The notes below the pieces were generated by a model that did no database searches, was not told where the DNA came from, and saw nothing but the letters and a program-made list of their open reading frames with translations. Position numbers and translations under genes: made by a program. A stretch of DNA of 64,000 nucleotides from Rickettsiales bacterium (lineage in GTDB: Bacteria; Pseudomonadota; Alphaproteobacteria; Rickettsiales; RI-342), in contig JBIPLF010000004.1 of the NCBI GenBank assembly GCA_044368015.1, positions 246 to 64,245 on the forward strand, written 5' to 3'. This document shows positions 6,492-45,136 of the stretch, in pieces; position 1 is the first letter of the stretch; each line of letters begins with the position of its first letter.

Positions 6492-6903
6492 CCAGATTTT
6501 CATTGCCCAGCGCCGCGATGCCTCCAGCCATGCCTGGCAGATGCCGCAGGGAGGGATCGACCATGGCGAAGAACCGCGTATGGCTGCACTCCGCGAGTTA
6601 AAAGAGGAAACCAGCATCACCGAGGTGGAAATTCTGGAAGAGCATCCGGAATGGCTCTCCTATGACCTGCCGAAAGACCTGCAACGCACCCTGTGGCGTG
6701 GGCGATTCGCCGGGCAGCGGCAACGCTGGTTTGCGCTGCGTCACCTAGGCACCGATTACGAGATTCAGATTGAGACCGCGCATCCGGAATTCCGCAACTG
6801 GCGCTGGGCGCATCCAGAGGAATTGCCGCCGCTGGCCGTGCCCTTCAAACGCGAGATTTACCGTCAGGTGGTAGAGGATTTCCGCCATTTGTGGCAAGGG
6901 TAG
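6379..6903 (+). CDS. rppH: RNA pyrophosphohydrolase (NUDIX)
   Basis: YRPCVGIMLLN start of the fold and Nudix box GGIDHGEEPRMAALRELKEETS. The 5' 113 nt overlap the preceding ORF, so the start is uncertain. Confidence 0.85.
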   Translation: MSQKPRNLPPSPPRQPPLTPPKKLYRPCVGIMLLNTRNQIFIAQRRDASSHAWQMPQGGIDHGEEPRMAALRELKEETSITEVEILEEHPEWLSYDLPKDLQRTLWRGRFAGQRQRWFALRHLGTDYEIQIETAHPEFRNWRWAHPEELPPLAVPFKREIYRQVVEDFRHLWQG

Positions 6904-6914
6904 CCACAGAAAGA

Positions 6915-8054: not shown

Positions 8055-8059
8055 CCCGC

Positions 8060-8527
8060 CTACTCCCAGCTTTCGGCTTCATAGGCGCCGAAAAACTCTC
8101 CCTTGCGAATCCAGCCGCGCACTTCCTGCACTTCGGCTCGGCACCAGCGCGGCAGGCAGCCGAGCAATACGCCTGTCACCCCGCGTTCCAACCGCACCAC
8201 GGGGGCGGCGTTTTCGTCGGCAAAACGGCGGAGCGTTGCCACATCCACCGAAACGCTTAAGGTGCGACGCCCCGTCAACAGCGCGTGATGCACCCAGCCG
8301 GTATCGCCTTCTGGGTCGCGCACGCGCCGCCACTCACCCAGCTCGTCGATGATCTCTACCGGCAACCCCGGCTTCTGATAGGTCCAGACGATGGGATACT
8401 GGTTGCCCGGCCCGGCCCGTAAATTCGCCTCCGCCGGGCGGATGCTGGCAAAACGCGGCAGCGGCAACGTCCCCGCCCACAGGATGGAAGGGAAAAGCAG
8501 CAGCAACAGTAACGGGATCAAACGCAT
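8060..8527 (-). CDS. SH3-like domain protein (DUF1058 type), secreted
   Basis: Signal peptide [18 protein letters not shown], then two SH3-like segments ([27 protein letters not shown]...[15 protein letters not shown]). Confidence 0.7.
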
Positions 8528-8609
8528 GCAGGCATAAAACCGCAGCTTGCGCCTCGCGGCAATAGATTTCTGTTATACTTTCCCCGTGGGATGCGCTAAA
8601 GTGCATGGC

Positions 8610-8897
8610 ATGAAACGTTTCACCGTCCCCTGCGATTTCGGCGGCAAGGTTGCGCCCTTTCACATCTATATCGGCGAGCCAAACCCAAAGAATCACCCGT
8701 TGCAGCATCAGGCGCACTGGCTTTCCAAGGAGCGCGGCGGCACCATTCCGCAGGAAGTGATGGATAGTTTCGAGAAACTCCACAAAATCTCGCAGGAGCA
8801 TGGTGTGTCGTTTGAGGAACTCTGCGTCTACGCATTAGGCGCGGCGAAGGGCGCCCCCCCTCCCGGCGGTATCGATCCGTCCAAATTAAATGGCTAG
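8610..8897 (+). CDS. conserved hypothetical protein (resembles DUF2610 family)
   Basis: MKRFTVPCDFGGKVAPFHIYIGEP...HPLQHQAHWLSKERGGTIPQEVMDSFEKLHKI matches my recollection of this small proteobacterial family. ATG 8610 chosen over the upstream alternative start. Confidence 0.45.
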   Translation: MKRFTVPCDFGGKVAPFHIYIGEPNPKNHPLQHQAHWLSKERGGTIPQEVMDSFEKLHKISQEHGVSFEELCVYALGAAKGAPPPGGIDPSKLNG

Positions 8898-8920
8898 AAC
8901 GGTACGAAACGTTGTGTATC

Positions 8921-9008
8921 CGTCATTGCGAGGAGCGTAGTGACGAAGCAATCCAGCCTTCTTCATGTTTCTGGATTGCCGCGCTCCCTGCGGTCGCTCG
9001 CAATGACG
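8921..9008. repeat. palindromic element, family C (cgtcattgcgagg...agcaatcc / ggattgc...cgcaatgacg)
   Basis: Outer arms cgtcattgcgag / ctcgcaatgacg and inner arms gcaatccag / ctggattgc. A partial copy lies at 27107-27147. Confidence 0.8.
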
Positions 9009-9079
9009 TTCGTGGCAGGTAACCGCACAACGAAAACACGACAGCAACAGGTTACAGCCCATCATGATAGCGATAATGG

Positions 9080-17030: not shown

Positions 17031-17254
17031 CACCCCTCCCTTGATGGGAGGGGTCGGAATCGTTGACGATTCCGGGGGAGGGTGTCATCCTGAGCGTAGC
17101 GAAGGATCCCTCAGTTTACATAAACCTATCCGTGCTTCGTAAACGGAGAGATCCTTCGGGGATGCATCCTCTCATGATGACCACCCCCTCCCGGCCTCGC
17201 TGGCGGTTCGCTACGCTCACGCCGCTCGCCGACCTCCCCCATCAAGGGGGAGGT
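17031..17254. repeat. nested composite: family A arms enclosing a family B element (17084-17180)
   Basis: cacccctcccttgatgggaggggtcggaatcgttgacgattccgggggagggtg, then gtcatcctgagcgtagcgaaggatccctc...gagagatccttcgggg...catgatgac, then ccaccccctcccggcctcgctgg...cccccatcaagggggaggtg. Confidence 0.85.
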
Positions 17255-17349: not shown

Positions 17350-18582
17350 TCACTGCCCTTCCATCTGCGATGCGATGTACCCACTGACGGCTGCCATGGC
17401 GTCGCACACCCGATCCAGTAGCTCAGCTTTGTGGTGGTCCGCTGCTTCCCAGGCGATTTCGGCCTGTTTGCACTGTTCGGAGAGGGCAAAGGCCCCCAGA
17501 TTAGCGCTGGCCCCTTTGAATTTATGCGCCGCCGCCTTCCATGCCGCCTGATCTCCTGTTTGCAACGCCTGACGCAGGCTTTGGATGTTGATGTCTGCCT
17601 CGGAGAGAAACAGTTCAAAAATCTCGGCCTCTGCCTCCCGGTCGCCATCGGTGAACAGCCGTAAATGCTCCATATCCACCGGAGCCGTGGAGGGTGATGC
17701 AGGGGGCAATTCCTGCGCCAAAGCTTGGGCGTTTTGCGTGGCTGGAATCCACTGATTGAGGACTCCAATGAGTGTCTCTGGCTTGACCGGCTTGGTGATA
17801 TAGTCGTCCATACCGGCGTTTAGGCAGGTCTCCCGGTCGCCGATCATGGCGTTGGCGGTCATGGCGATGATCGGTACATGGCTGGTGCCGTCCTGTTCCT
17901 GCAAACGTACGGTGTGGGTGGCGGTGTAGCCGTCCATCTCTGGCATCTGGCAATCCATCAGCACCAGATCATAGGCCTGCAAGGTTATTTTATCCAGGGC
18001 CTCCTGCCCATTTTCGGCGGTATCGACCTGTGTGATGCCCAGTTTTTTGAGTAGCTTCAACAGGAACATCAGGTTGATGGGATGGTCATCCACCGCCAGA
18101 ATCCGGGCATCGGTGCGGAAACGTGCCTCCCGCGTTTCGGTGTGCGTGCGGACAGGTGCTTCCGTTACAAAACACACCTCGCCGCTGGGAACTTCCATCG
18201 GAATGCGGAGGGTAAAACAGGAGCCCTTCCCGGCTTCGCTGGTCACGGTGATGGTACCGCGCATCAGCAGGGCCAGTTCGCGGCTGATGGCCAGCCCCAA
18301 CCCGGTACCCCCGTATTTGCGGGTGGTGGAGGCATCGGCCTGCGTGAATTTCTCGAAGATGGTATCCAGTTTGTTTTTGGGAATACCGATGCCGCTATCC
18401 CGCACATGCACCAGCATCTGGTGATCCTCGTCGGTTTCCACTTCGATCCTCACCCCGCCCTTTTCGGTGAATTTCAACGCATTGCTAATCAGGTTGCGGA
18501 TGATCTGCTGGATGCGGGTGCAGTCCCCCATCAATAGCGGCGGAAGGGCTGGGGAGAGGCTCAAATCCGCGTTGCCTGGCAA
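17350..18582 (-). CDS. hybrid sensor histidine kinase, C-terminal fragment (HATPase_c + REC + HPt)
   Basis: N-box [14 protein letters not shown]-boxes RDSGIGI / [10 protein letters not shown], receiver [11 protein letters not shown]...[13 protein letters not shown]...KP, HPt [14 protein letters not shown]. The ORF-track start is a TTG artefact, and the frame continues from 18485..19366 after a frameshift. Confidence 0.8.
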
Positions 18583-19366
18583 GCGGGTGAAACAGGCGAT
18601 GCAGCCCGTCGAAGAGATCCTGCGTGTGATACAGCGTGTGTTCCAGCGTTAATCCACCGGATTCCACTTTGGAGATATCTAAAATATCATTCAGCAATTC
18701 GAGCAGTTGTTCACCGGACTGATGAATGGTCTGGATCATCTCCTGTTGTTCGTCTGGCAGTCCTGCGTCCAGCAACAAGCGCGAAAGCCCCAGCATCCCA
18801 TTCATCGGGGTGCGGAGCTCATGGCTCATATTGGCCAGAAAACGGCTTTTAGACTCGCTGGCGCTTTCGGCTTTCTCACGCAGGGTGTTGGCTTCCAGCA
18901 GATGCTCTTCCAGTTCCAGCATCGTGGCTTCTGCCCGCATGGTGGCAAGTTTGAGCTTGCGGGTGTTGCGTTGCTGTTCGCTGATATCGCGGATCAGGGT
19001 CAGGGCACCCACCGCCGCTCCCCGCTCCAGCAGGGGGAGGATTTTATACTCAAACCAGCGATGTTCACGCTGGGCAGAGGCAGGTTTTTCAAGCGTGGCG
19101 ACGAAGGGGCGATGGGGGGGCGTGAGTAGGTCATGGGTGTCTTCCTCCAGCTTCATCAAATCGTCATTGTTCAGAATGGCAGGGTCCCACCCCTCCAGCG
19201 GCAAGGCTCGCAGCGCTTGCCCGACCACCTGTCCCGGACGTTTGGCACCGATCAGCTCCAGATACATGGCGTTGCATCCTGCCACCCGTCCGGCTGCGTC
19301 TGTCCAATAGACAGCGCTTGGCAGGGTGTTAACTATCAGGGAGAAGGTGGAATCGGAGAATGGCAT
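18485..19366 (-). CDS. hybrid sensor histidine kinase, N-terminal fragment (PAS + HisKA)
   Basis: Cytoplasmic PAS-like region and H-box [18 protein letters not shown]. The ORF runs out of frame about 100 nt before the ATPase fragment begins. Confidence 0.8.
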
Positions 19367-19451
19367 GGCACGTCCTTGATCAATGCTATGTTTTCGGCTT
19401 GCTTGACGCTTGCATCATCCCTTTTCCCTGCCGCTTGCGGCAACGGTTCTA

Positions 19452-19545
19452 CCCCCTCTCCCTCTGGGAGAGGGTCGGGGTGAGGGGGGACTTAACTCGT
19501 CCCTCACCCGGCGCTGCGCGCCACCCTCTCCCGGAGGGAGAGGGA
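19452..19545. repeat. GC-rich palindromic element, family A
   Basis: ccccctctccctctgggagagggtcggggtgaggggg ... ccctcacccggcgctgcgcgccaccctctcccggagggagaggg. Confidence 0.8.
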
Positions 19546-19579
19546 ATCAGGCCGCTCCATGAAGAAAACACAAGTTAGG

Positions 19580-19948
19580 TCACCGGTTCAGCACATCGTC
19601 CCGCGTGGTGGCGACAATCGCAAGCGCCTCGTCGATCATCGGAGCGTCAACGCCCAATTCCTGCAACGTGGCCACCAGATGACCTGCCACACGGTCGAAA
19701 TGCACGTCGGAAAGACCGCGTTTTACCAATCCAAAATGCGCGGTGCGTAAATGCTGCCCCTCGTAATGGTGTGGCCCGCCGAACGCCATGGTGATGAAGG
19801 CCGTCTGACTGGCACGGAGCCTTGCCATATCCACATCCTCAAAGAAGGGGATGAGCAGCTCGTCCTCCAGAATTTTTTCGTAGAATCGTACCACTGTGGC
19901 TTTCACCGCGTCGCGGCCCCCTAAACGCTCGAACAAACATCCGCTCAT
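19580..19948 (-). CDS. glbN: group I truncated haemoglobin (TrHbN-like)
   Basis: 122 aa. FERLGGRDAVKATVVRFYEKILED...FF...Q..F...AFGGPHHYEG..L..AH pattern of 2-on-2 globins. Confidence 0.85.
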   Translation of the reverse strand: MSGCLFERLGGRDAVKATVVRFYEKILEDELLIPFFEDVDMARLRASQTAFITMAFGGPHHYEGQHLRTAHFGLVKRGLSDVHFDRVAGHLVATLQELGVDAPMIDEALAIVATTRDDVLNR

Positions 19949-19957
19949 TGGGTTCTC

Positions 19958-20842
19958 CTATCCGTTGTTGGCACGTTGTTTGTGCTCGGACGCACAATCG
20001 CGAATGTAATGTAAAAGCACTTCCTTACGGAATGGTTTATGGACAAATCCCCGCGCTCCGTAATCGAAAGCCGTCAGGATGTTGTCCAGATACCCGTGCG
20101 AGCTGAACATCACCACATAGGCATCCTTATCGGCGGCAAGGATACGTTGCAGCACGGCAAATCCGCTTTTGTCCGGGAGATTGATATCCAGAAACACAAT
20201 ATCCGGTGCATAGAGCAGGTAGTTGCCGATCGCATCCTGCGCGGTTTCGGCGGTCACCAGCCGGTAATCGTTTTTGAGTAATTGCCCGGCAATGCGGCGC
20301 GTTACCGGATCGTCCTCCACCAGCATCACATAGGGCGGCTGACGCGTGCCTCGTTGGGTGATGTTGGCCTCCAGAATATCGGGGATCATCTCCACCCCAT
20401 CCAGCAGGCTATCGGCCGTGTGCGGGCTGCGTGCGGCAACCGTCGATGCCTTGCCCTTGGTGGCAATGAGTGTGGCCGCCGCCTGCCATTCCTGTTGCAG
20501 CGCATAGAGTTTTCGGCTGGTGATGCACCAGTCACGCGTGCGTAGCGCATTGCCCAGCAGGGTGGAAAAATCGGCAAACACCTGCTTTTCAACATGGCGG
20601 CCCATCAGGATCACGTCACCGTCGCTGCACAGAAATCCGCAGCTATCGGTATTGTAAAACCCGACTCCAATAAGGTCCTGCAACAGCAGGTGAATCTCAT
20701 CCGGCGAGGCATGACGATCCATGTTATACGGGCGCAGGCCCACATGCTGCATGGTCCAGTTGCGCCAGGTGAGCGGATCATGCCGAATGGCCTCTGCAAT
20801 CTGGGCCAGCAATTCCGGAGCAGTTTCATAGCGTAAATACAT
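19958..20842 (-). CDS. response regulator: unassigned N-terminal domain + C-terminal receiver
   Basis: C-terminal REC (VMLVEDDPVTRR...IVFLDINLPDKSG...GARGFVHKP). The N-terminal ~150 aa have no motif I recognise. Paralogue of 20961..21839. Confidence 0.8.
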   Translation of the reverse strand: MYLRYETAPELLAQIAEAIRHDPLTWRNWTMQHVGLRPYNMDRHASPDEIHLLLQDLIGVGFYNTDSCGFLCSDGDVILMGRHVEKQVFADFSTLLGNALRTRDWCITSRKLYALQQEWQAAATLIATKGKASTVAARSPHTADSLLDGVEMIPDILEANITQRGTRQPPYVMLVEDDPVTRRIAGQLLKNDYRLVTAETAQDAIGNYLLYAPDIVFLDINLPDKSGFAVLQRILAADKDAYVVMFSSHGYLDNILTAFDYGARGFVHKPFRKEVLLHYIRDCASEHKQRANNG

Positions 20843-20890
20843 GGTATCTTCCTTCCTGTTGGCACTTTTTTATATGTGTCTTCATCTTCT

Positions 20891-20939
20891 CATCCTGAAC
20901 CCGGAGGGGTCGGAATCGCTTGCGATTCCGGGGGAGGTG
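20891..20939. repeat. short family A fragment (ggaggggtcggaatcgcttgcgattccgggggaggtg)
   Basis: Same ggtcggaatcg-N-cgattccggggg hairpin as at 17054-17080. Confidence 0.75.
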
Positions 20940-20960
20940 AACCACACAGAACCTCCTGAA

Positions 20961-21839
20961 CTATACGGTTTGTTTGGCGCGCAGATGCGGCGAACGCTGA
21001 ATGGATTCTTCCAGCTTCAGCCGGGTGAAGGGCTTGCCAACAAACCCCTTGGCCCCCATTTCCACGGCGCGCATAATGTTGGCGCGGTCGCCATTGCCAC
21101 TCAACATAACGATATAGGCATCCGGATCGATTTCGCGGAGGCGGGCAAGCAACTCAAACCCGTTGACGTCCGGCAGGTTGATATCCAGAAACAGGACATC
21201 AGGTGCCTGCGTGACATACAATGGCAGGGTGTTGTCCCCGCCATCTGAGAGTACCAACGCATAGGTTTCCGGCAGGGCTTTCCCCACCAGCTTGCGGGAG
21301 AACGCATCGTCCTCGATCACCATCACCGTGACGCGATCGCGGTTGCGGCGACGCTCGGCGAGGGTGGCAATCAATTCCGCCCGCAGGGGAGAGCGTAAAA
21401 TATCCTGTTTGCGGCGGGCACTGTTTTCCTGCGCTTTGGCGATCTGTACTTCCTGCGTCACGGCTTCCTGCGCGGCAATCTGTGCTTCGGCCAGCGCACG
21501 CAGCGGGCTGTAGCTGCGCTCAATGTCATGGAGCATGGCCAGTGAGGCAATCGGCCAGATGAGCAGATCGGAAAAACGGGCTACAATTGTTTCATAACTG
21601 CGAAAACGAATGGTTTCAGCCAGCAGGAGCACATCGCCATTGGTGAAAAAGAATGCCTGAAGCGACGGATCGTCAATCTCATTTTGCAACGCGGTAGCGA
21701 GGAGTTCCGGGGTGATGCTGTGGCGTTGATCGCAGGTTGAGAAGCGGAAATGCAGCACCCTTCCCGGTGTGCGTGCATGGTGCCAGCTATCCAGTGTCTG
21801 GCGGAAGGTACGTTCGGCATGGTCGGTGATGGTCAACAT
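20961..21839 (-). CDS. response regulator: unassigned N-terminal domain + C-terminal receiver
   Basis: C-terminal REC (VMVIEDDAFSRK...VLFLDINLPDVNG...GAKGFVGKP). N-terminal domain is paralogous to 19958..20842 and to the N-terminus of 59860..61083. Confidence 0.8.
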   Translation of the reverse strand: MLTITDHAERTFRQTLDSWHHARTPGRVLHFRFSTCDQRHSITPELLATALQNEIDDPSLQAFFFTNGDVLLLAETIRFRSYETIVARFSDLLIWPIASLAMLHDIERSYSPLRALAEAQIAAQEAVTQEVQIAKAQENSARRKQDILRSPLRAELIATLAERRRNRDRVTVMVIEDDAFSRKLVGKALPETYALVLSDGGDNTLPLYVTQAPDVLFLDINLPDVNGFELLARLREIDPDAYIVMLSGNGDRANIMRAVEMGAKGFVGKPFTRLKLEESIQRSPHLRAKQTV

Positions 21840-21886
21840 ATCGCTTCTCTCTGCACTTGCTTGCGGTTGGTTCGCCCTTCCTTAAG

Positions 21887-21902
21887 TGCAGCGCCCGTGC
21901 CA
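21887..21902 (-). promoter_or_regulatory. sigma-54 (-24/-12) type promoter candidate
   Basis: Minus strand reads TGGCACGGGCGCTGCA, against consensus TGGCAC-N5-TTGCA (one mismatch, correct GG/GC spacing). It lies 48 nt upstream of the start codon at 21839, next to a divergent GAFTGA activator gene. Confidence 0.5.
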
Positions 21903-21962
21903 GAGTCATTTAATTTTACATATCAATATATTGACCGTGTTGCGCCGCGCAAAAACCATCCA

Positions 21963-22019
21963 TTAAGCGTTTGATAATGAAACGCCTTTATCCTGAGCGT
22001 TGCAAAATGAAACGCTTAA
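21963..22019. promoter_or_regulatory. tandem imperfect palindromes (candidate activator binding sites)
   Basis: aagcgtttgataatgaaacgcc and gagcgttgcaaaatgaaacgctt: two copies of AGCGTT-N9-AACGC, 60-115 bp upstream of the sigma-54 motif. The outer 10-mers ttaagcgttt / aaacgcttaa are perfect inverted repeats. Confidence 0.4.
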
Positions 22020-22034
22020 GGGTGATCCATCCCC

Positions 22035-23432
22035 ATGTCCGACCGTATTCTCTTGGTGGAAGATGACCGTACCCAACGGCTGATGACGCAGCGTTTGTGC
22101 GAGAAGCTGATGGGGTGCACGGTGCTGACCGCGTCGCATGGGTTGGAGGCGATCGGCACGCTGGAGATGGAAGAAGATATTGCTCTCGTCCTCATGGATG
22201 TGCAGATGCCGGTGATGGATGGGCTGACGGCGCTCAAAAAAATCCGTGCCCGCCATGCGGAACTGCCGGTAATCATGCTCACTGGCTCCAGCCAGCCGGA
22301 CGATATCGTCGCCGCGATGCGGGCGGGCGCGACGGATTTCCTCCCCAAACCGGCGGATCCGGAGCGGTTGCGGGTTTCCATTCAGAACGCATTGCGGTTG
22401 CAGGCGCTCGCCCGCGAGGTAGCGCGGCTCAGTCGCGGACAAGGAGAGGCGATTGGCTTCCGCGACCTCATCGGGCATGACAAGGGACTCGCCGACATCA
22501 CCCGCATGGGACGCAAAGCGGCGTTTGCATCCATCCCGGTGCTCATCAGTGGCGAAACCGGTACGGGGAAGGAGATGGTCGCCCGCGCCATCCATGGCGA
22601 AAGCCCCCGCGCTCGCGGGCCGTTTGTGGCGGTGAATTGCGGGGCGATCCCGGAAAAACTGGTGGAAAGCACCCTGTTTGGCCATGAAAAAGGCGCCTTT
22701 ACCGGAGCGATTGCCAAGGCGCTCGGTAAATTCCGCGAGGCCGATGGCGGAACGATCTTCCTCGACGAGGTAGGCGAGCTGCCGCCGGAAGCGCAGGTGA
22801 AACTGCTGCGCGTGCTTCAACAACACGAGGTGGAGCCGGTGGGGGCCGGGCGCACGGTGCCGGTCAATATCCGGGTGATTTCCGCCACCCATCGCGACCT
22901 GCGCGAGGATGTCGCATCCGGGCGCTTCCGCGAGGATCTCTATTTCCGGCTGCATGTGCTGTCGCTCGCCATGCCGCCGCTGCGCGAGCGGGCGGAGGAT
23001 ATTCCCCCACTGGCCAGCCATTTGCTGGACCGCTTTGCCACCAGCGATCGGCTACCCTTCAAACGCCTGTCACCGGAAGCGAAAGCATTACTGCAACGCT
23101 ATGACTGGCCGGGCAATGTGCGCGAACTGGCCAACACCCTGCACCGGGCGCTGGTACTCTCCGAACATGAGGTGCTGGAAGCCACCGATTTCCCCGAATG
23201 CCACCGCACCCCCTCACGGATGGAATCTCTGCCTGCCCTATCCGGGGGAGCATCCCCCTCCACTCCCCTGTTCCTCAATGCCGATGGCACGCTGAAACCC
23301 TTGCGCCAACTGGAGGAAGAAGCGATCCGCTTTGCCCTCTCCCACACCAAGCAGAACGCCACACAGGCCGCCGCTGCGCTGGGTATCGCCAAATCCACGC
23401 TGTATCGGCATTGGGGGAAAGAGACACTGTGA
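22035..23432 (+). CDS. sigma-54-dependent response regulator (NtrC family: REC + AAA+ + Fis-type HTH)
   Basis: REC (ILLVEDD...[13 protein letters not shown]...KP), Walker A GETGTGKE, intact GAFTGA, C-terminal [19 protein letters not shown]. Confidence 0.9.
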
Positions 23433-23457
23433 ACCGCAAGGGAATGACTACGCAACC

Positions 23458-23529
23458 TCCCCCCACTCCTTCACCCGCGCCAGATGCATAAAATCCGAAT
23501 GCGGCGGGCGGCGGTCGGGTGTGGGGCAG
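23458..23529. repeat. direct repeat copy 1 (duplicate of the addB 3' end)
   Basis: 72 bp identical to 23988-24060 except for one C fewer in the leading C-run. Confidence 0.9.
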
Positions 23530-23706
23530 ATTCTACGAAAATATTCGTAACGACGCGTAAAGCATTGGCCCCAAGGTGATTTGACTTCAGTGTTTCACCG
23601 TATTGTCACAAAACACACATGTGCCTGTCACAGTCTGTAGGCAGAGTGCGCATGGTTAGTTACTTAGCCTACAATGCGTAAAAATCACAGAAAAGGAGAT
23701 CAAGTA

Positions 23707-23943
23707 ATGCCAATTCGCGCCGTGCTTCCCACTGCCGACCAAGCAGAAGGAATGGAAATCTATTACGCTATGACAGAGGTTCTGCCAACAAATATTACGG
23801 ATGGTATTTCTTACGCTACTGGTTATCAGCTGACTTGGAGCGATGATCATCTGCCTGATGGATCTACCAAGGAGACAGCGGGCAAACATATACAACGGTA
23901 TATAGAAGAGAAAGCCAAAAAGATTGGTATTGCCATGGGGTAG
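23707..23943 (+). CDS. hypothetical small protein (78 aa) carried by the insert
   Basis: AAGGAG lies 7 nt upstream of ATG 23707. No recognisable motif. The ORF-track start 23674 is also possible. Confidence 0.4.
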   Translation: MPIRAVLPTADQAEGMEIYYAMTEVLPTNITDGISYATGYQLTWSDDHLPDGSTKETAGKHIQRYIEEKAKKIGIAMG

Positions 23944-23984
23944 AGTCCGTTTTGGAGGGATTTGATCTCTGTTGTCGAATCCCC

Positions 23985-26900
23985 TCATCCCCCCCACTCC
24001 TTCACCCGCGCCAGATGCATAAAATCCGAATGCGGCGGGCGGCGGTCGGGTGTGGGGCAGGAGAGATAGGGCGTTTCCGGATCGTCAAACGCAGCAATGA
24101 GTGCCTGCACGCCCGCTTCCGCCTCCCGAATCAGCGTTGGGTGTTTCTCGGGTTTAGGGGTTAGGTATTCCACCACATCCTCACGTCCGTGCAACTTCCA
24201 GTAGGAGGTGGTGAAACTCAGGGGAAGCTCTGGTAAGTCTGCAAACCCGGCTTTGGCGGCAATCAACGCTTCCAGTGTCAATTGGCAGGCAACGCCCTGA
24301 TCAATCTTCTTCTGACTGGGGAGCAGACCAGTTTTGTAATCAATGCAGGCGAGTTCCCCCGTGGAAGGCGCATATTCCAGCCGGTCGGCCTTGGCGCTTA
24401 GCGTAAACGGCCCGGCGGACGCTGCCCATTGCCAGGTGCCGGTGCATTCGCTGAAAAGCTGCAACCCCGTGGCACGCCGCGCTGCGTCTTCCTCCACAAA
24501 CCAGTGGAGAATCTGCATCAGCCGTGGCCACCAGAAATGCCGAATCGCCGGACGTTCCAGCAGTTTCCCCAGTTGGGACGCGGCCTCCTGCTCCATCCAT
24601 GCGATCCGCGCATCGGGAGAAAGTGAAGGAAACGCCAGCGCATAACCCTCCAGAATCGCATGGAGTATCTGCCCGAATTGCAGATGGCTGGGGTCGAGAT
24701 CGAGTTCCTCCAACGCCTTGAGCTTGAGGATTTTCGACGCATAGAGGCTATAGGGATCGCGCAGTAACAGCTCAATTCGCGTCGCCGAAAGTGACCGTGG
24801 CCGCAGGCCTACCGGAGGGCAAGCCGCCACCGGTGCAAGCGGTGTCACGGTTTTCGGTTGGTCCAGCTGCGCCACCCATGCGGGGAAATGCGCGGTACTC
24901 CCCCTCTCCCTGTGGGAGAGGGAGGGGTGAGGGAAATCTGAATCCTGAACTCCGCACTCTACACTCTGCAATCCCCCCACCACCTCCACTCGCTGCCACC
25001 AACGCGAGGGGATGGCCGGGCTTCCCCCCTGTTTGCGGGCGCGGGTGAGGATTACCTCCGGCAGTGCCATCAGGGTAGCAACATCATAGGCCGAACGACC
25101 AATTTCCTCCGTCGTGTCCGGCAACCCCAGCTTCACGCGCATCGGACGGCTGAGCCAGGGGTCGGCCTCTGGCAATGCGGGCCAGGTGCCCTCGTTCAAC
25201 CCGGCCAGAATCACCCGATCGGCCCGTTGCAACCGCGCCTCAATGGGGCTTAGAATCCGCAGCCGTGGATGCCGATGGTAGGGCGCGTGGTAGCTCTCCT
25301 TGCTCATTAATTGCTGCAACACGGCGGCATAATGGCGACCATCCAGCGTAAAATGCTCCTCGGCGGCATCCCACAACGCCTCGCACCACCGGCTGCTGGC
25401 ATGTCCGGTATCCTCGGCCCACAGCCGCTCGGCACCGGGTGCGACATCGCTACTGGCGAGCGCCTCAGCGGCGCGCAGATGCGTCTCCCACAGATCACGC
25501 AGCCTCACCGACCGGGCGGCAAGCAGGCGCGTCAATGGCTCCAGCGCCGCATGGATACGGTCGAACCAGACGCGCATTTCCGGTTCGTCGTGCTGAGCGG
25601 AGCGAAGCATCTCGCCACTTGCTCCAAAGGTTTGTCGCGATGAGAGATCCTTCCGCTTCGCTCCGCTTTGCGTCAGGATGACATCCCGCCACCCCTCCAA
25701 CGTATGAGGCCGCAACCCCCGCAAGGTGTGGATTTCCAGCCTCCGCGCCATGCGACGACAGGCGGCAGGCGTAACCCCCACCACCGCCATCGGGTGTTTG
25801 AGAAGCGCCAGAAACGGCACCGGCGAGAGCGGATCACCCGCCAACTCCACCACCAAACGCAGAAACACCATGGAGGGCAGCGCGGCCACCGGCACCCCAG
25901 CGGAATCGTCCAACTCCACCCCATAGCGTGCCAGCGAGGCAATCACCCGACGCGCCAGCGCCCGATCCGGCGTGACGAGCATCGCCGTCTTGCCGGGGGT
26001 TTCCAACGTTTCGCGCAGCATCATGGCAATGCCAAGCGCTTCGTCCTGGGGGGTGGGGAAGACAGGGTTCAGGATTCGGGATTCAGGGGTCAGAAGTTTT
26101 TCCGTCCCTCTTTCTGAATCCTGAATCCTGAGCCCTGAACCCTGATGCCACGCCTCACTCACCGCTGCTGGCCGCATCACCTCGGCGATCCAGCGGGTGC
26201 GGGGTGATAGCGGCGAGGCACCCGGAAACAACGTCACCGCCTCACGCGGGAGGTTGAGCAGCTCCAGCAGGTTTTTCAGCGCATATTGCGGGTGACCGGG
26301 GGCAATGGCTTTCCAGTAATCGGCATCGCTTTCCTGATCGAGCGGCGGCAGCACCAGCATCCCTTCCGGCATCCGGGCGATGCAACGCAGCAGCCGCGCC
26401 GTGGCGGGCTGACTGCCGGTAGACCCCGCCGCCACCAGCGGAAAGGCGGGCGGATGCGCCTCCCAATGCGCCACCAGCGCCCGCAATTGCCGGTTGCGGC
26501 GATCCACCGGGTCCAGAAAACCAGATTCCTGCACGATCTTCGGCCAATGTTCGGTGAGGATGCTTAAAAACCCCACCACCTCCTGCCAGTGATGCGACAG
26601 ATGCTCCGGTGCCAGATCGCGCAGCTTACTGGTGTCGCAATCATAGCGTTGCCAATCATCCAGCAGACTCGCCAGACTATCGGCCAGCAGCAGCGCGTGG
26701 TCGTGACGGCGAATCGCCTGCGGCAGCGCGCCCTGCCAGCGTTCAATCAGTTGCGCGAGGAGGAATTGCCGGGTCAGCAGCGGAATCGCCGGAGGCAGCG
26801 GCGCAATCTCTTCCAGAATCGCGGCGAGGCTCCCTTCCTGCTCGATATCCCCCAGCGCCGCCATGCGCGGCAGCAGCAGGGGCCGCCCCTCGCTCACCCG

Positions 26901-27056
26901 CACAAAGGCTTCGCGCAACGCCGGAACCGCTCGCTGCGTGGGCAGCAGCACCAGCGTCCGGGCCAGCAACTCGGCCTCGTCCTGCGTGCGATGGATCAAC
27001 CCACGCGCCAGCGTTTCCAGAAATGCCACGCCTGCGGGGATGGTCGTGCAATGCAT
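23985..27056 (-). CDS. addB: double-strand break repair protein AddB (alphaproteobacterial type)
   Basis: 1023 aa. N-terminus TIPAGVAFLETLARGLI and C-terminal PD-(D/E)xK nuclease region ADRLEY...CIDYKTG are typical of alpha AddB. Three palindromic elements are read through in frame. No addA downstream. Confidence 0.85.
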   Translation of the reverse strand: MHCTTIPAGVAFLETLARGLIHRTQDEAELLARTLVLLPTQRAVPALREAFVRVSEGRPLLLPRMAALGDIEQEGSLAAILEEIAPLPPAIPLLTRQFLLAQLIERWQGALPQAIRRHDHALLLADSLASLLDDWQRYDCDTSKLRDLAPEHLSHHWQEVVGFLSILTEHWPKIVQESGFLDPVDRRNRQLRALVAHWEAHPPAFPLVAAGSTGSQPATARLLRCIARMPEGMLVLPPLDQESDADYWKAIAPGHPQYALKNLLELLNLPREAVTLFPGASPLSPRTRWIAEVMRPAAVSEAWHQGSGLRIQDSERGTEKLLTPESRILNPVFPTPQDEALGIAMMLRETLETPGKTAMLVTPDRALARRVIASLARYGVELDDSAGVPVAALPSMVFLRLVVELAGDPLSPVPFLALLKHPMAVVGVTPAACRRMARRLEIHTLRGLRPHTLEGWRDVILTQSGAKRKDLSSRQTFGASGEMLRSAQHDEPEMRVWFDRIHAALEPLTRLLAARSVRLRDLWETHLRAAEALASSDVAPGAERLWAEDTGHASSRWCEALWDAAEEHFTLDGRHYAAVLQQLMSKESYHAPYHRHPRLRILSPIEARLQRADRVILAGLNEGTWPALPEADPWLSRPMRVKLGLPDTTEEIGRSAYDVATLMALPEVILTRARKQGGSPAIPSRWWQRVEVVGGLQSVECGVQDSDFPHPSLSHRERGSTAHFPAWVAQLDQPKTVTPLAPVAACPPVGLRPRSLSATRIELLLRDPYSLYASKILKLKALEELDLDPSHLQFGQILHAILEGYALAFPSLSPDARIAWMEQEAASQLGKLLERPAIRHFWWPRLMQILHWFVEEDAARRATGLQLFSECTGTWQWAASAGPFTLSAKADRLEYAPSTGELACIDYKTGLLPSQKKIDQGVACQLTLEALIAAKAGFADLPELPLSFTTSYWKLHGREDVVEYLTPKPEKHPTLIREAEAGVQALIAAFDDPETPYLSCPTPDRRPPHSDFMHLARVKEWGG
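23988..24060. repeat. direct repeat copy 2 (functional addB 3' end)
   Basis: Starts immediately after the addB stop codon complement (23985-23987) and encodes the last ~24 codons of addB. Confidence 0.9.
24900..24950. repeat. family A hairpin plus family D-like tail, in frame in addB
   Basis: ccccctctccctgtgggagagggaggggtgaggg followed by aaatctgaatcctgaac. Translated on the minus strand as ...VQDSDFPHPSLSHRERGS... Confidence 0.75.
25586..25682. repeat. family B palindromic element, in frame in addB
   Basis: cgtcgtgctgagcggagcgaagcatctc...gagagatccttccgcttcgctccgctttgcgtcaggatgac. Same architecture as 17084-17180 and 40197-40301. Translated as ...SGAKRKDLSSRQTFGASGEMLRSAQHDE... Confidence 0.8.
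26063..26144. repeat. family D palindromic element (gattcagg / cctgaatc repeats), in frame in addB
   Basis: cagggttcaggattcgggattcaggggtcag ... ctgaatcctgaatcctgagccctgaaccctg. Translated as ...GSGLRIQDSERGTEKLLTPESRILNP... Confidence 0.8.
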
Positions 27057-30431: not shown

Positions 30432-30508
30432 TGGCGGTCCCGGCGCGATTCGAACGCGCGACCTTTAGATTCGGAATCTAACACTCTATCCAGCTGAGCT
30501 ACGGGACC
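30432..30508 (-). tRNA. tRNA-Arg (anticodon CCG)
   Basis: The reverse complement ggtcccgtagctcagctggatagagtgttagattCCGaatctaaaggtcgcgcgttcgaatcgcgccgggaccgcca folds as a 77-nt cloverleaf. It has a 7-bp acceptor stem, GTTCGAAT T-loop and encoded CCA. Confidence 0.9.
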
Positions 30509-33150: not shown

Positions 33151-33870
33151 ATGTCAGGGACCATAGGTAAACGAGCGAAGCCGAAAGGCAAAAAGCGCCT
33201 AAGCAATATCGGTGGACCGCTGGATGAACAGCGGAACTGGTATCAGGATCGCTATCAGTATGCTCTGGTACAGCGGAACGTGCTGGCCATGGTTGCGCTC
33301 CTTTCGTTGTTTATTGCCTTGTTTGCAGCCATTACCTCTTCGCAGCTATCGCCGCAGAAGTCGGTGAAACCCTTTATTATCCAGATTGATGATAAAACCG
33401 GGATTACGCAGGCCGTTGACCCTCAAAAGTATCAGGAAATCAGCGCAAATGAGTCATTGAAACGCTATTTCATTGCCCAGTATATCCGTGCCAGAGAAAC
33501 CTACGATCCGGCAACCAATTCGCACGACATTGAATCAGTTCGGGTCATGTCATCACCGGAAGTGTTCGAGGGGTACAAGGAGTATATATCGCCCAAAAAC
33601 CCGGAAAGCCCGGTCAACCTCTTTGAAGATAAATCTAAGCGGGTGATTCGCTTTAAATCTCTTACTTTCCTGATGCCAGACGTCGCACAAGCCCGCATCA
33701 GCGCGGTTGTGCAGGGGGACAAAGAGCGTAAATATCCAGAGGAGCACCGGATAGTGGTCGTAAAATTTGAGTTTGTTAAACTTGACCTGAATCTGCAGGA
33801 GCGGTTGATTAATCCTCTCGGATTCAGGGTTGTCAGTTACCGCGAGAGCGAGGAGATCATATCCCAATGA
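33151..33870 (+). CDS. virB8: type IV secretion system protein VirB8
   Basis: WYQDRYQ, a single TM helix and YFIAQYIRARETYD are VirB8 family signatures. AT-richer than the flanks. Confidence 0.85.
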   Translation: MSGTIGKRAKPKGKKRLSNIGGPLDEQRNWYQDRYQYALVQRNVLAMVALLSLFIALFAAITSSQLSPQKSVKPFIIQIDDKTGITQAVDPQKYQEISANESLKRYFIAQYIRARETYDPATNSHDIESVRVMSSPEVFEGYKEYISPKNPESPVNLFEDKSKRVIRFKSLTFLMPDVAQARISAVVQGDKERKYPEEHRIVVVKFEFVKLDLNLQERLINPLGFRVVSYRESEEIISQ

Positions 33871-34697
33871 AGCATCTCATAGCCATTTGTCTGTCGGTTC
33901 CGTTGCTTTTAGCAGCCCAGCTCACGCATTCTGCCCACGCGCAGGAGATGCTGCTCCCTGCTGTTTCTGCTCCGGTTGTATCGGATAGCCGTATTCGAAC
34001 GCTGGTGTATAACCCAAACGAGGTATACAAAATCGTTGCCCACTACGGGTATCAGTCCAACATTGAGTTTGGCGTGCGCGAAGATATCCAGACGATTTCC
34101 CTAGGCGATCAGGTAGCATGGCAGGTAGTGCCATCCGGACGCTTCCTGTTCATTAAGCCGATGGAATCGCAGGCTCGCACCAACATGACTGTGGTCACTT
34201 CCAAGCATGTCTATCAGTTCGATTTGACCGCTCGCCCGGCAGAGAATGCAGTAGACGAAGAGCTCTCTTATGTGATTCGCTTCTTTTACCCAGAAGCCGG
34301 CACTCAGAACCCAACTCCAGCGCCATCCTATGCCGAGCCTGCACTCCCTCAGCCATCTGCACCGCTTGCGACCAATATCGCCATGGCGTCCCCTTCGCCC
34401 TCTCCAGCGATTGGTGGGGGGACCCCTTCCTACAATTTCCAGTACACGCTTTCGGGCCGGACCGCTTTTGCACCCGAACGGGTGTTTGATGATGGTACTC
34501 ACACTTATTTTCAATTCTCCAGCGGCACCATTCCTCAACTTGCAACCGTGGATGCGCAGGGCAAGGAACAACCCCTGCAATACAATGATACGGGGGATTA
34601 TGTCGTTGTCCCCACCGTCGCAAGCCAGTTCACGTTGCGTTATGGCGGCGGTTTGGTCTGCGTCTTTAACGAAACCATGCAGCCGGGCAGGATGTAA
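33867..34697 (+). CDS. virB9: type IV secretion system protein VirB9
   Basis: Signal peptide, then IRTLVYNPNEVYKIVAHYGYQSNIEF...TNMTVVTSKHVYQFDL (VirB9/CagX/TrbG pattern). ATGA overlap with virB8. Confidence 0.85.
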   Translation: MKHLIAICLSVPLLLAAQLTHSAHAQEMLLPAVSAPVVSDSRIRTLVYNPNEVYKIVAHYGYQSNIEFGVREDIQTISLGDQVAWQVVPSGRFLFIKPMESQARTNMTVVTSKHVYQFDLTARPAENAVDEELSYVIRFFYPEAGTQNPTPAPSYAEPALPQPSAPLATNIAMASPSPSPAIGGGTPSYNFQYTLSGRTAFAPERVFDDGTHTYFQFSSGTIPQLATVDAQGKEQPLQYNDTGDYVVVPTVASQFTLRYGGGLVCVFNETMQPGRM

Positions 34698-34702
34698 TCG
34701 CC

Positions 34703-35893
34703 ATGGTAGACTCCCCTCCAGAATTTGACGCCATAGAGCAGGAAGAGGATTCCTCCTCGCTTGATAAACGCAAAACGGTTGTTTCTGCGGCCCCCAATCG
34801 CACGTTGTTGATTCTTGCGATCGTCGGTGCCGCGTTTATTTTCTTCCTGTACCTGATCTTTAGCGGCGGGGACAAGAAGGAAAAAGAGCTGGTGGATGAC
34901 GCACTGAAGGCACAAAAAGTAGGCGATAAAGACGCAGACGCCTTACCTCCGCCTATAGCAGCCCCTCTTCCGCCGCCACCGCCGCCGCCGCCACCGCCGC
35001 CGCCTCCACCGCCGCCGGTTTCTCCGGATCAGGCTGGCTTTGATGCTGTGGATCCGAATTTGGATGCACGTCGGGCACGTCTCAAATCTGAAATGATGGT
35101 GGTGGGCGGATCCATTTCTGATAAAGCCTCCAAGGCATTCTCCGGTAAATCGGAAGATAAAAAGGAAGTCGTCTCCACCCCAGACGACCCCAACAGCAAA
35201 TTTGCGGAATCGGTCTATAAAACAGAGGCCGAGCAGGCTGAAGCCACCAGTATTGGCGACCTGGATCGTACCATTGCCGAAGGCAAGGTGATTGATATTG
35301 TGTTGGAAACAGCGATCAACACTTCGTTACCCGGAACGCTGCGCGCCATTGCTGCCCGCGATATTTATGCAGAACAGGGCCGCAATATCCTGATTCCAAA
35401 AGGGTCGCGGATGATTGGCAAATACAACACAGCGGTACGTCGTGGACAAAACCGTGTCTATATTGTGTGGACACGCCTCATCCGTCCGGATGGCATCGAT
35501 GTCCCCATTCAGTCGGAGGGGACCGATCAGCTCGGTCGCTCCGGTACAGAGGGCATTGTGGATGCAAAGTACATGGAGATCTTCTCCAGCGCGCTACTGG
35601 TCAGTGCTGTGACCATCGGTGCGGCCTACGGGGTGGAACAGATTGTGGATGATCCTCAAACCACGCGCCGCCGTTTCAGTGATGGTAGCAGCGAACAGAA
35701 CGGCTCGCCCACTGCCTTAGCGGCTCAGGACAATCTGGAGCGTATCGGCAAAACCGCCACCTCACTGATCGAAGAATTTATTGATCTACGACCGGTGATC
35801 CATATCCCTCAGGGCACGCAGATGAAAATCTTCGTAAACCGGGATCTGGTATTTCCAGAGAGCATCCTGAACCGTGTGCGCGTGATTCCATGA
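34703..35893 (+). CDS. virB10: type IV secretion system protein VirB10
   Basis: N-terminal TM helix, 16-Pro tract, and a C-terminal TrbI/VirB10 barrel (GKVIDIVLETAINTSLPG...ILIPKGSRMIGKY). Confidence 0.85.
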   Translation: MVDSPPEFDAIEQEEDSSSLDKRKTVVSAAPNRTLLILAIVGAAFIFFLYLIFSGGDKKEKELVDDALKAQKVGDKDADALPPPIAAPLPPPPPPPPPPPPPPPPVSPDQAGFDAVDPNLDARRARLKSEMMVVGGSISDKASKAFSGKSEDKKEVVSTPDDPNSKFAESVYKTEAEQAEATSIGDLDRTIAEGKVIDIVLETAINTSLPGTLRAIAARDIYAEQGRNILIPKGSRMIGKYNTAVRRGQNRVYIVWTRLIRPDGIDVPIQSEGTDQLGRSGTEGIVDAKYMEIFSSALLVSAVTIGAAYGVEQIVDDPQTTRRRFSDGSSEQNGSPTALAAQDNLERIGKTATSLIEEFIDLRPVIHIPQGTQMKIFVNRDLVFPESILNRVRVIP

Positions 35894-36885
35894 GTTTTAC
35901 TGCTCTTGAAACCTACCTTGCGCCACTGGAAGCCCTGTTTGCGATGGAAGGGGTGACGGAGATTTCCATTAACCGCCCACTGGAAGCCTGGGTGGAGCAA
36001 TATGGGGAGATGTCTTACCACGCCATTCCGCAATTTGACCTCGACCATCTGAAATCGCTCGGCCGCCTGATTGCGCAATCCACCGAACAGATGATCAGCG
36101 AAGAACGCCCGCTGCTCTCGGCCACACTTCCGGCCGGGTTCCGTATTCAGGTGGCTTTCCCACCCGCATGCGAGCCGCGCACGGTGTGTATGTCCATCCG
36201 CAAACAAACCATTCTGGATTTCGATCTGGATAGGTACGAAGCGCTGGGTGCTTTCGAAATGACCGCCGTCAGCAAGCAGGACAATAAGGTAGACCTTGAG
36301 CTGCGTGATCTGCTCAATAAGGGGGAAATCAAAGCCTTCCTGATTAAGGCGGTGCGGGCACGCAAAAACATGATCATCAGCGGTGGTACTTCGACCGGTA
36401 AAACCACCTTCCTCAACGCCGTGCTGAAAGCCATTCCGGAGAAGGAACGCATCATCACCTGCGAGGATGCCCGCGAGGTAGAGCTAAAACATATTCCCAA
36501 CCGCGTGCATCTGTTGGCCTCACGCGGGGATCAGGGGCGTGCTCAGGTGACCATGCAAGATCTCATCGAGGCCTGTTTGCGCTTGCGTCCGGATCGTATC
36601 ATCGTGGGTGAGTTGCGCGGGAAGGAGGCCTTCAGCTTTCTGCGGGCCGTGAATACCGGCCATCCAGGGTCCATCACCACCATCCACGCCGATGCCCCCA
36701 TGCTGGCGATTGAGCAACTGGTGCTGATGCTGATGCAGGCGGGTATGGGCATCATGCGTGATCAGATTATTGCCTATGTAAACAACGTGATTGATATTGT
36801 GGTCCAGCTGAAACGCGGCGATAAAGGACGTCGCTTCGTGTCCGAAGTGTTCTTTAACGATGGACTGCAACAAGGATTTCATTGA
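35890..36885 (+). CDS. virB11: type IV secretion ATPase VirB11
   Basis: Walker [54 protein letters not shown]. Confidence 0.9.
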
Positions 36886-36887
36886 TC

Positions 36888-37724
36888 ATGACTCAGGTCG
36901 CCGTTGGTTCCCTTACCATCGCCAATCATCTGCCGTTTGTGTTGCTGGCGGGTCCCTGCCAGATGGAATCCCGCGACCACGCTTTCATGGTGGCCGGGCA
37001 ATTAAAAGAAATCACCGAAAATCTGGGGATAGGGCTGGTTTACAAAAGCTCTTTCGACAAGGCTAATCGTACCAGCCTGCATAGCCAGCGCGGCATTGGT
37101 ATGGAAAAAGCGCTATCGGTGTTTGAAGCGATCAAAAAAGAGCTGCACCTCCCCGTGATGACCGATGTGCACGCGCCCGACCATTGCGCCGAAGTGGCCT
37201 CGGTGGTGGATGTATTGCAAATTCCGGCGTTCCTGTGCCGTCAGACCGATCTGCTGGTTGCCGCCGCCCAAACCAAACGCGCCATCAACATCAAAAAAGG
37301 GCAGTTTCTGGCCCCGTGGGATATGCGCCATGTGGTACAGAAAATGCGCGATTCCGGGAATGATCAGGTAATGGTGTGCGAGCGCGGCGCCAGTTTTGGC
37401 TACAACACGCTGGTCACCGATTTCCGATCTCTGCCCATTATGGCGGAAACCACCGGTCAGCCGGTAGTGTTCGACGCCACCCATTCCGTGCAGCAACCCG
37501 GAGGCATGGGCGGTGCATCGGGTGGTGAGCGGCGCTTTGTCCCCATCCTTGCCCGTGCGGCGGTGGCGGTGGGGATTGCAGCCATTTTTATGGAAACGCA
37601 CGAAAATCCGGATGCTGCCCCCAGTGACGGCCCTTGCATGGTACCGCTGGCGGATATGCCCAATTTGCTGGCTGATTTACAAGCACTGGACCGCCTGACC
37701 AAAGCGCGTGCCGTCGCCGCATGA
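36888..37724 (+). CDS. kdsA: 3-deoxy-8-phosphooctulonate (KDO-8-P) synthase
   Basis: [35 protein letters not shown] lies 2 nt after the virB11 stop. Confidence 0.9.
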
Positions 37725-39493: not shown

Positions 39494-39575
39494 AAACTAC
39501 AACACGCCGCGATCATTTAACCGTTTTGTAAGAAAAACCATGCTATACTGATAGTGAACAGTATAGGTATCTTCT

Positions 39576-39875
39576 GTGGAAATACACAGCACCGAACCAA
39601 GACTATATATTAACGACTTTCGACTCACCACAGCCGAAATTCTCTACCGCCTCCCCGATTACCCGCTGATTCTGCAAACCTTCCTGTGGCAGGATATGGA
39701 TCTGCCACCGGAATTTCCGCAGCTCAAGCAGTTTCTGTGCTTCTGGGAACGCAGTCTGGACGGGAAACTCTACGAAGTGCGCGTGGTGAGCAGCGACATC
39801 CCCCCCCGCGAATCCGTGCGGTGCGGATCGGTGTGGAATGTCGCCGCCCCGGAGAGCCTGTTTAGTTACCACTAG
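39576..39875 (+). CDS. usg: Usg family protein
   Basis: LTTAEILYRLPDYPLILQTFLWQDMDLPPEFPQLKQFLCFWERSLDGKL closely matches alphaproteobacterial Usg proteins. GTG start. Confidence 0.75.
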   Translation: MEIHSTEPRLYINDFRLTTAEILYRLPDYPLILQTFLWQDMDLPPEFPQLKQFLCFWERSLDGKLYEVRVVSSDIPPRESVRCGSVWNVAAPESLFSYH

Positions 39876-39898
39876 GCACCAGCGATCCTATCCCTGAA

Positions 39899-40096
39899 TT
39901 AAGGGGTATGTTCCTCTAGCGCTAACACCACGTCGAGTGCTAGAGCTATCTGCTTATTACTGTATCCAGGGCCAACCGATTGAGCTATTTGATCAGCTAG
40001 CTTCTGATCTGGCTGGATGGGCAAACCACTATCTACTGCCGTTTTTACCAAGCTAGCTATCTGTAGTGCTTCATTACGTTCCTGTTGTGTAGGCAT
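39899..40096 (-). CDS. hypothetical small protein (65 aa), AT-rich
   Basis: ATG 40096 is preceded by GGAAGGGA. The upstream part of the 132-aa track ORF is a read-through of the repeat at 40197-40301. No recognisable motif. Confidence 0.3.
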   Translation of the reverse strand: MPTQQERNEALQIASLVKTAVDSGLPIQPDQKLADQIAQSVGPGYSNKQIALALDVVLALEEHTP

Positions 40097-40196
40097 TGGC
40101 TTTCCCTTCCGATGTTCTTTGATGTAGGCGAGGGAAGGTGCCCCACGGATGTGTCTTTTTTTTTTCAAGCTGATGACACTTTTATGACAATGTGGG

Positions 40197-40301
40197 GCAT
40201 GCTGAGTGAAGCGAAGTATCTCTCCGCTTGGAATGATGTGACAGATGCCTTGTTCTGTTGAGAGATGCTTCCCCTTCGCTCCACTCAGCGTCAGCATGAC
40301 G
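40197..40301. repeat. family B palindromic element
   Basis: gcatgctgagtgaagcgaagtatctctc...gagagatgcttccccttcgctccactcagcgtcagcatgacg. Confidence 0.8.
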
Positions 40302-45135: not shown

Positions 45136-45136
45136 T

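Follow-up and report, generated by a model that had tools for sequence, protein, structure and literature searches.

The stretch of DNA analysed here, referred to as the window, comprises 64,000 nucleotides of contig JBIPLF010000004.1 from an assembly of a Rickettsiales bacterium (GCA_044368015.1). This work concerns a locus within it where the gene of a sigma-54 activator and addB, the gene of an AddAB nuclease subunit, converge, and where a 71-nt direct repeat brackets a spacer of 458 bp (23530-23987), hereafter the cargo. The following features were assigned at the locus:

22035 to 23432, plus strand: gene of an NtrC-type sigma-54 activator of 465 amino acids, from its translation and the Pfam families Response_reg, Sigma54_activat, AAA_lid_14 and HTH_8
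23433 to 23458, no strand: host flank from the activator stop to the first repeat copy, from the sequence
23459 to 23529, minus strand: repeat copy 1 (R1), a putative distal att site, 69% GC, an exact 71-nt match to 23990-24060
23530 to 23706, no strand: left arm of the cargo, non-coding, 177 bp, 42% GC, from sequence and composition
23707 to 23943, plus strand: ORF78, an orphan gene for a mildly acidic protein of 78 amino acids, from translation, periodicity and codon usage
23944 to 23987, no strand: right arm of the cargo, 44 bp, with a hairpin and, on the minus strand, the present stop codon of addB, from the sequence
23990 to 24060, minus strand: repeat copy 2 (R2), a putative gene-proximal att site, being the functional 3' end of addB from Cys1000 to Gly1022
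23985 to 27056, minus strand: addB, the putative target gene, 1023 amino acids, from its PDDEXK_1 domain and its homologues

A repeat search of the window recovered the two copies at 100% identity (23459-23529 and 23990-24060) with a start-to-start spacing of 531. They are the sole long exact repeat in the 64 kb, short families resembling repetitive extragenic palindromic (REP) sequences aside, and the recurrence of a 71-mer by chance in a stretch of this length is effectively impossible. At the left edge of the repeat stands a run of C, six in copy 1 and seven in copy 2, and counting this run brings the copies to 72 and 73 nt. Both copies are preceded by T, and the flanks outside the repeat limits are unrelated. 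R2 comprises the final 23 codons of addB plus one base and encodes C-PTPDRRPPHSDFMHLARVKEWG(G). It begins directly after the complement of the addB stop codon (TGA on the minus strand, 23985-23987), which lies on the cargo side. R1 starts 25 nt beyond the stop of the activator gene and is a non-coding duplicate of the same 23 codons. The activator gene, convergent with addB, is the host DNA that borders the insert distally, and the minus strand of the short interval 23433..23458 encodes an alternative addB tail, G-E-V-A-stop (complement of TAG at 23448-23450). When one repeat unit was removed in silico, AddB grew to 1025 amino acids, ended in EWGEVA*, and 15 nt remained between the two convergent stops. 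The initial annotation had described repeats of 72/73 bp differing by one C, the second directly after the addB stop complement and encoding the gene end, the first 25 nt past the stop of the convergent activator, and had predicted that excision would change the end of AddB from EWGG* to EWGEVA*. All of this was borne out, with the repeat now defined as a 71-nt exact core that has C6 or C7 at its left edge. It is a matter of speculation that activator mRNA reading through R1 would include a 71-nt stretch fully complementary, in antisense, to the end of the addB mRNA (3' side).

Considered as anatomy, a repeat running up to the last sense codon, a stop codon on the cargo side and a displaced native tail appear to be the trace that an element leaves on integrating at a gene's 3' end. 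The identity changes abruptly from 100% to none at both edges and no AddB sequence occurs in the cargo, which argues against an old segmental duplication. Indeed, similarity to AddB by blastx was confined to R1 with none deeper in the cargo, so R1 is not the tip of a decayed second addB; residual addB or pseudo-addB in the cargo was thereby ruled out.

Geometry alone would also fit a diversity-generating retroelement in which R2 is the variable repeat and R1 the template repeat, since the repeat is situated at a gene 3' end, its copy lies a few hundred bp downstream and the repeat end is G-rich. However, the copies are identical and lack adenine-specific differences, the repeat encodes an invariant C-terminal motif of AddB and not a variable ligand-binding fold, and neither a reverse transcriptase nor an Avd-like gene was present among the scanned open reading frames (ORFs) of the window. 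A template and variable repeat pair is effectively refuted by these findings, and we consider its probability to be next to nil.

Strict identity across a stretch that a graph node would share is, in addition, what could be expected from a metagenome assembly artefact, either by a graph path leading twice through a shared 71-mer node, for example where an empty-site chromosome was merged with a separate 530-bp circular or tandem molecule, or by a joining of strain variants. The sole source of the locus is one contig of 111,716 bp from JGI metagenome 3300059473, redeposited as the metagenome-assembled genome GCA_041443025.1. On the other hand, 71 nt is none of the usual assembler k-mer sizes, and because the repeat is shorter than normal reads the assembly should resolve it. 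Any such path would still need real molecules joining the cargo to the addB tail on both sides, and the association of cargo and repeat would therefore be real in any case. An artefact was accordingly judged very improbable.

The 458 bp between the repeats have a GC content of 44.8%, compared to 63% in the flanking genes and an average of 58% for the genes of the window. Elsewhere in the window, the GC content of intergenic spacers extends from 43.8 to 65%, and since the cargo falls inside this range, its AT-richness alone is no mark of foreignness. The AT-rich mini-island of the initial annotation is thus correct as a description of composition but not diagnostic. The same holds in part for its 78-codon ORF with an AAGGAG start: both the ORF and the strong motif are there, while the gap between the motif (23693-23698) and the ATG is 8 nt and not 7. 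This Shine-Dalgarno motif is the strongest among 35 starts inspected, most starts in the genome having a weak one. ORF78 displayed a 3-nt periodicity (chi2 23.5, p = 6e-4) on a par with in-frame host-gene windows of 234 nt (median 25.6) and above that of 94% of the intergenic control windows. Purines occupy 70% of its first codon positions, and an antisense ORF of 113 codons gave an implausible translation rich in Cys, Phe, Ile and Arg. The GC content at third codon positions (GC3) of ORF78 is 0.418 against 0.673 +/- 0.05 in 44 host genes, a z-score of about -3.5, and its synonymous codon usage scores below 99.7% of 360 host chunks of 78 codons. From these properties ORF78 looks like a real gene that has not evolved in this genome, and the cargo was probably acquired horizontally, because ORF78 appears coding yet has non-host codon usage. 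As a separate observation, 3-nt periodicity was elevated in the intergenic control windows themselves (mean chi2 13), suggesting that coding sequence, decayed or unannotated, lies among them.

The composition bears directly on an alternative in which the duplication is local and non-mobile, with the spacer and ORF78 being native (a lineage-specific orphan) and a 71-nt patch of the addB end having been placed beside the activator gene by template switching in replication or repair. A GC content of 44.8% inside the 43.8-65% intergenic range is in line with this, long spacers are common in the window, and small repeat insertions are abundant in the genome, some of them within addB; nor was any recombinase or second copy found in the window, or any homologue in the collections searched. 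Against it stands ORF78, for which a periodic sequence with codon usage beyond 99.7% of host chunks would be unexpected if native. A random patch would have no reason to begin at the last sense codon of addB, and the microhomology at the junctions of R1, as read from the sequence, is no more than 1 nt. We regard a local duplication as decidedly unlikely.

ORF78 had no match in Pfam, PHROGs, PADLOC or PDB sequences, and its peptide patterns had none in viral or metagenome contigs. In a word-indexed search against 5.8 billion protein clusters, ORF78 itself was the sole match. A full HMMER scan of 1.84 billion representatives returned six matches, all of them long, internally repetitive proteins from unrelated families (fn3, LRR_5/T9SS and DUF1737-like repeats). 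The E-values, down to 8e-23 in proteins with 7-10 matched stretches each, arise from the summing of 5-10 near-identical weak matches, while a single matched stretch in these proteins reached 25-30 bits in pairwise BLAST. The six proteins were rejected as homologues, as repeat summation mimics significance. AlphaFold2 without alignment gave a predicted local distance difference test score (pLDDT) of 56.8, too low for a fold search.

The left arm of the cargo (23530..23706) contains short dyads, TGTCACA twice and the palindrome CACATGTG, and is without coding periodicity (chi2 4.0, p = 0.67). In the right arm there is a hairpin of 9-10 bp at 23957-23983; no U-tract follows it on either strand, and the terminator search was without a match there. 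No canonical terminator was found in either arm, the promoter search gave only one weak promoter-like match, and Rfam yielded no family at gathering score and noise alone at E < 5. Folding of the repeat hairpin and of the whole region was no better than folding of shuffled sequence.

The repeat is host-like in composition (69% GC, GC3 of about 78%, host wobble bases), whereas the cargo has 45% GC. Together with the 100% identity of the copies, wobble positions included, this would suit foreign DNA captured without a dedicated integrase, for which two routes were considered. Either a small circle already bearing the host addB end entered by a RecA-dependent single crossover of the Campbell type, or a foreign fragment was joined at a break with staggered ends of ~71 nt, and fill-in duplicated the addB tail. 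Homologous recombination mediated by RecA is possible with 71 bp, the window is without a recombinase, and arm-type motifs are not visible in the cargo. However, capture leaves unexplained why the identity breaks off no more than one or two bases away from the stop codon of addB. The Campbell route requires an unexplained prior step that puts the addB tail on the circle, and we know of no precedent for a 71-bp target duplication among transposition-like or end-joining insertions. Capture of this kind was considered rather unlikely.

A PD-(D/E)XK nuclease domain is present in AddB of the window, for which over 6400 homologues were recovered, the closest of them 43% identical. The conserved C-terminal motif encoded by the repeat, SD(F/Y)xHLARVKEW, was present in all 120 homologues among the matches listed. 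AddB ends 2 residues past the conserved EW, where homologues have 6-10 mostly acidic residues. In ordinary Alphaproteobacteria the block around addB is tsaE-APH-nucleotidyltransferase-addB-addA-trxA, intact in two of the loci compared (L002 and L003). Here addB is uncoupled from that block and addA is not downstream. The nearest AddB (L001, 43% identity) is likewise isolated and has a short tail, …AAWK*. Since a convergent gene lies 10 nt past the addB stop in L001, a tight convergent empty site is plausible, and the reconstructed site (EWGEVA*, 15 nt between stops) would plausibly fit the gene packing of this lineage.

Several collections were searched for such an empty site and for further copies. 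The C-terminal half of AddB found no relative among one genome per species, and a wobble-degenerate DFMHLARVKEW pattern had 0 matches in genome, JGI metagenome and viral contigs, collections that do not include the contig of the window. Plasmid and phage records had no blastn match to 23433-24100. When ORF78, AddB and the activator were looked up by exact sequence, only the same contig, deposited twice, came up. The 90% cluster of AddB consists of a single member sequence, and no EWGEVA* allele is therefore on record. With the nearest AddB 43% identical, the lineage has no closer sequenced relative; as the lineage is unsampled, the empty comparative searches are not evidence against empty sites or other copies.

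Within addB we also observed insertions of another kind. Families of GC-rich, palindromic REP-like repeats (CCCTCTCCC...GGGAGAGGG and CCCTCCCCCGC...GCGGGAGAGGGG) occur in the window, with copies in addB at 24902-24968 and 26113-26144, both in frame. These are at or near lineage-specific insertions of 10-15 amino acids missing from 12 aligned AddB homologues: the copy at 24902-24968 coincides exactly with one insertion, and that at 26113-26144 is a few codons upstream of the other. They recall the Rickettsia palindromic elements, which insert into coding sequences. Further copies are found at 1580-1623, 4333-4367, 4422-4465, 17047-17081, 19454-19488, 20903-20937, 49860-50008 and 62530-62573.

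Tyrosine-integrase elements insert in the 3' ends of tRNA and housekeeping genes; one of the flanking repeats, which are generally 8-60 bp long, includes the gene end, and the gene stays undisrupted (PMC5704250). Elements that have decayed by loss of their integration and transfer genes while keeping attL and attR are known as cis-mobilizable elements, CIMEs (PMC5704250). We tentatively favour reading the present locus as the footprint of foreign DNA that integrated at the 3' end of addB and shrank to a 458-bp CIME-like remnant, without giving this reading quite an even chance. The remnant has probably kept both att-like repeats and lost the recombination genes. The ancestral site would have been an addB ending in ...KEWGEVA*, with only 15 nt between its stop and that of the sigma-54 activator gene convergent with it. 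A circular element carrying the final ~71 nt of addB in copy would have recombined with this gene end, most likely through a tyrosine-type integrase, given the length of the repeats and the restored gene. The intact addB would since continue via R2 into an element-supplied 'GA TGA' tail (...KEWGG*), and the displaced native tail would have been left behind R1. Internal deletions would then have spared only a non-coding arm and ORF78 with its own strong ribosome-binding site. We infer the direction of the event, the role of a site-specific recombinase and the decay from the layout described above. Recombination between R1 and R2 would drop a unit of 530/531 bp and leave a functional addB; it could be RecA-dependent or proceed via an integrase supplied in trans.

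A number of observations weigh against integration followed by decay. With 71 nt, the repeat somewhat exceeds the usual 8-60 bp. It has the composition and wobble bases of the host, so the copy brought by the element must stem from the addB of this host lineage; such a host-derived copy would come naturally to an element that has resided there for long, but is explained just as well by homology-driven capture or local duplication. No integrase, excisionase, transposase or relaxase was found among the scanned ORFs of the window, the cargo arms gave no evident IHF-consensus sites or arm-type repeats in a motif search, and neither the repeat nor the cargo has a second copy in the 64 kb. Genome, metagenome, viral, plasmid and phage collections contained no empty site, sister element or ORF78 homologue. 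Furthermore, all evidence comes from one metagenome-assembled contig.

The initial annotation had taken the repeats for an attL/attR footprint. The anatomy and the acquired-looking cargo agree with this, while no recombinase or second copy was found in the window, and the host-like repeat would suit capture or duplication of the host's own addB end as well as a dedicated attP. Of its two explanations, the remnant of a larger island, although it is inferred only, is the best reading and matches the class of CIMEs and microCIMEs, whereas nothing was found to support a miniature cassette mobilised in trans. The searches it had proposed came out empty: no empty site or cargo copy in public collections for this unsampled lineage, no credible homologue of ORF78 and a pLDDT of 56.8, and no recombinase among the ORFs of the window.

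CIMEs and microCIMEs, remnants of ICEs (integrative and conjugative elements) and IMEs (integrative and mobilizable elements), are known from Streptococcus thermophilus, S. salivarius and S. agalactiae. In S. salivarius, CIMEs with cargo are 1.2-13 kb in size and microCIMEs without genes 130-220 bp (PMC7563491). The present locus resembles them in that direct repeats bracket a very small segment without integrase or transfer genes (PMC5704250, PMC7563491). Between the repeats we found ORF78 only, and no gene for an integrase, relaxase, coupling protein or type IV secretion system. As in those elements, one repeat, here R2, holds the 3' end of an intact target gene, the 1023-amino-acid addB. 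There are also differences. Firstly, the host is a deep-branching alphaproteobacterial metagenome-assembled genome and not a Firmicute. Secondly, addB is missing from the target-gene table of a review of IMEs (PMC5704250), no wider search for addB as a target having been made. With 458 bp and one gene, the unit lies between the gene-less microCIMEs (130-220 bp) and the CIMEs (1.2-13 kb), and its repeat, at 71 nt, exceeds the 8-60 nt that are usual. Finally, the unit is solitary: neither in tandem with it nor nearby is there an ICE or IME, and a parent element family is not known.

With the tyrosine-integrase IMEs, ICEs and islands the locus shares a 3'-end target, a coding sequence restored by the copy from the element, and direct repeats (PMC5704250); their target genes include guaA, trmE/thdF, yicC, rpsI, rpmG, rplL and fda. 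Unlike them, it has no integrase, excisionase, oriT or relaxase and is 1-2 orders of magnitude smaller, and relative to such systems the unit can only be a remnant or a passenger.

Other small units were compared and rejected. An integron gene cassette is similar as a unit of ~0.5 kb with a single ORF that could exist as a small circle with one recombination site. Here, however, the repeat is the coding end of addB and not the imperfect palindrome of attC (hairpin versus shuffles, z = -0.82), ORF78 has its own ribosome-binding site and an upstream arm, there is no array, and no IntI or attI is nearby; this candidate was dismissed for want of attC and of an integrase in the window. XerC/D-exploiting elements (IMEX) and pdif modules are likewise small and bracketed by duplicated recombination sites, with the recombinase encoded elsewhere. 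Unlike these, the repeat contains no convincing dif-like arrangement of an 11-bp arm, a 6-bp spacer and an 11-bp arm, only a 4-bp GCAT/ATGC dyad, and the site is at a gene end and not at a replication terminus or on a plasmid, so the dif-module reading fails on its defining features. Transposons and miniature inverted-repeat transposable elements are marked by terminal inverted repeats and a short target duplication of 2-15 bp. The cargo begins with ATTCTACG... and finishes with ...CCCCTCAT, which do not form inverted repeats, and the duplication measures 71 nt; a transposon origin was rejected on these grounds.

We also considered that the 530-bp unit, consisting of one att-like repeat, ~220 bp of arms and the 78-amino-acid gene, is no dead scar but a still-active minimal integrative cassette, which a recombinase encoded elsewhere in the genome or community would excise and put back at the 3' end of addB; this appears very doubtful. 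If active, it would be a single-gene 'passenger' system aimed at the end of a housekeeping gene, and ORF78 might be kept for acting on the neighbouring AddAB recombination-nuclease pathway.

The window as a whole is chromosomal, with housekeeping genes in scrambled order: mutS, typA, lon, nuoE/F, lptF/G, rsmB, uvrD, frr, pyrH, tig and a class I aminoacyl-tRNA synthetase (tRNA-synt_1b family, W/Y). Its sole tRNA gene, Arg-CCG, is located at 30432-30508. Upstream of the repeat locus there is a dense signalling cluster (17350-23432) with a hybrid histidine kinase with Hpt, a PAS/HisKA kinase, a bacterial globin, two stand-alone response regulators and the sigma-54 activator. A virB8-virB9(CagX)-virB10(TrbI)-virB11(T2SSE) block lies 9 kb away at 33151-36885 and is followed directly by a DAHP_synth_1 gene resembling kdsA and by one for an M24 peptidase (33151-37724); it bears no hallmarks of a mobile element. 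Near this block no virB1-7, virD4, relaxase or integrase was found, and it resembles the split type IV secretion clusters that are embedded in the chromosomes of obligate intracellular Alphaproteobacteria. The genes nuoF and nuoE (43561-46292) are apart from any nuo operon and have a spacer of 812 bp between them; several other spacers of 0.8-1 kb, e.g., 8085-9079 and 39494-40264, are without a Pfam-matching ORF. Two ORFs of ~400 amino acids, 6891-8084 and 52531-53754, have host-like composition and no Pfam match at E < 1e-4.

Should the locus be a decayed integrative element, addB would be another housekeeping gene whose 3' end serves as an integration site, and a CIME-type remnant would be present in a deep-branching and poorly sampled alphaproteobacterial lineage, in the form of ~0.5 kb with one gene, a size between the two described classes. 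What is unusual here is the target gene, the intermediate size and the host lineage, while the kind of element itself is probably already known. A new mechanism would be involved only if the cassette were active or if ORF78 acted on AddAB, and otherwise nothing would be mechanistically surprising. In practice, the 3' end of addB would be a site to inspect for genomic islands in relatives of this bacterium, and the two copies a repeat pair able to delete spontaneously.

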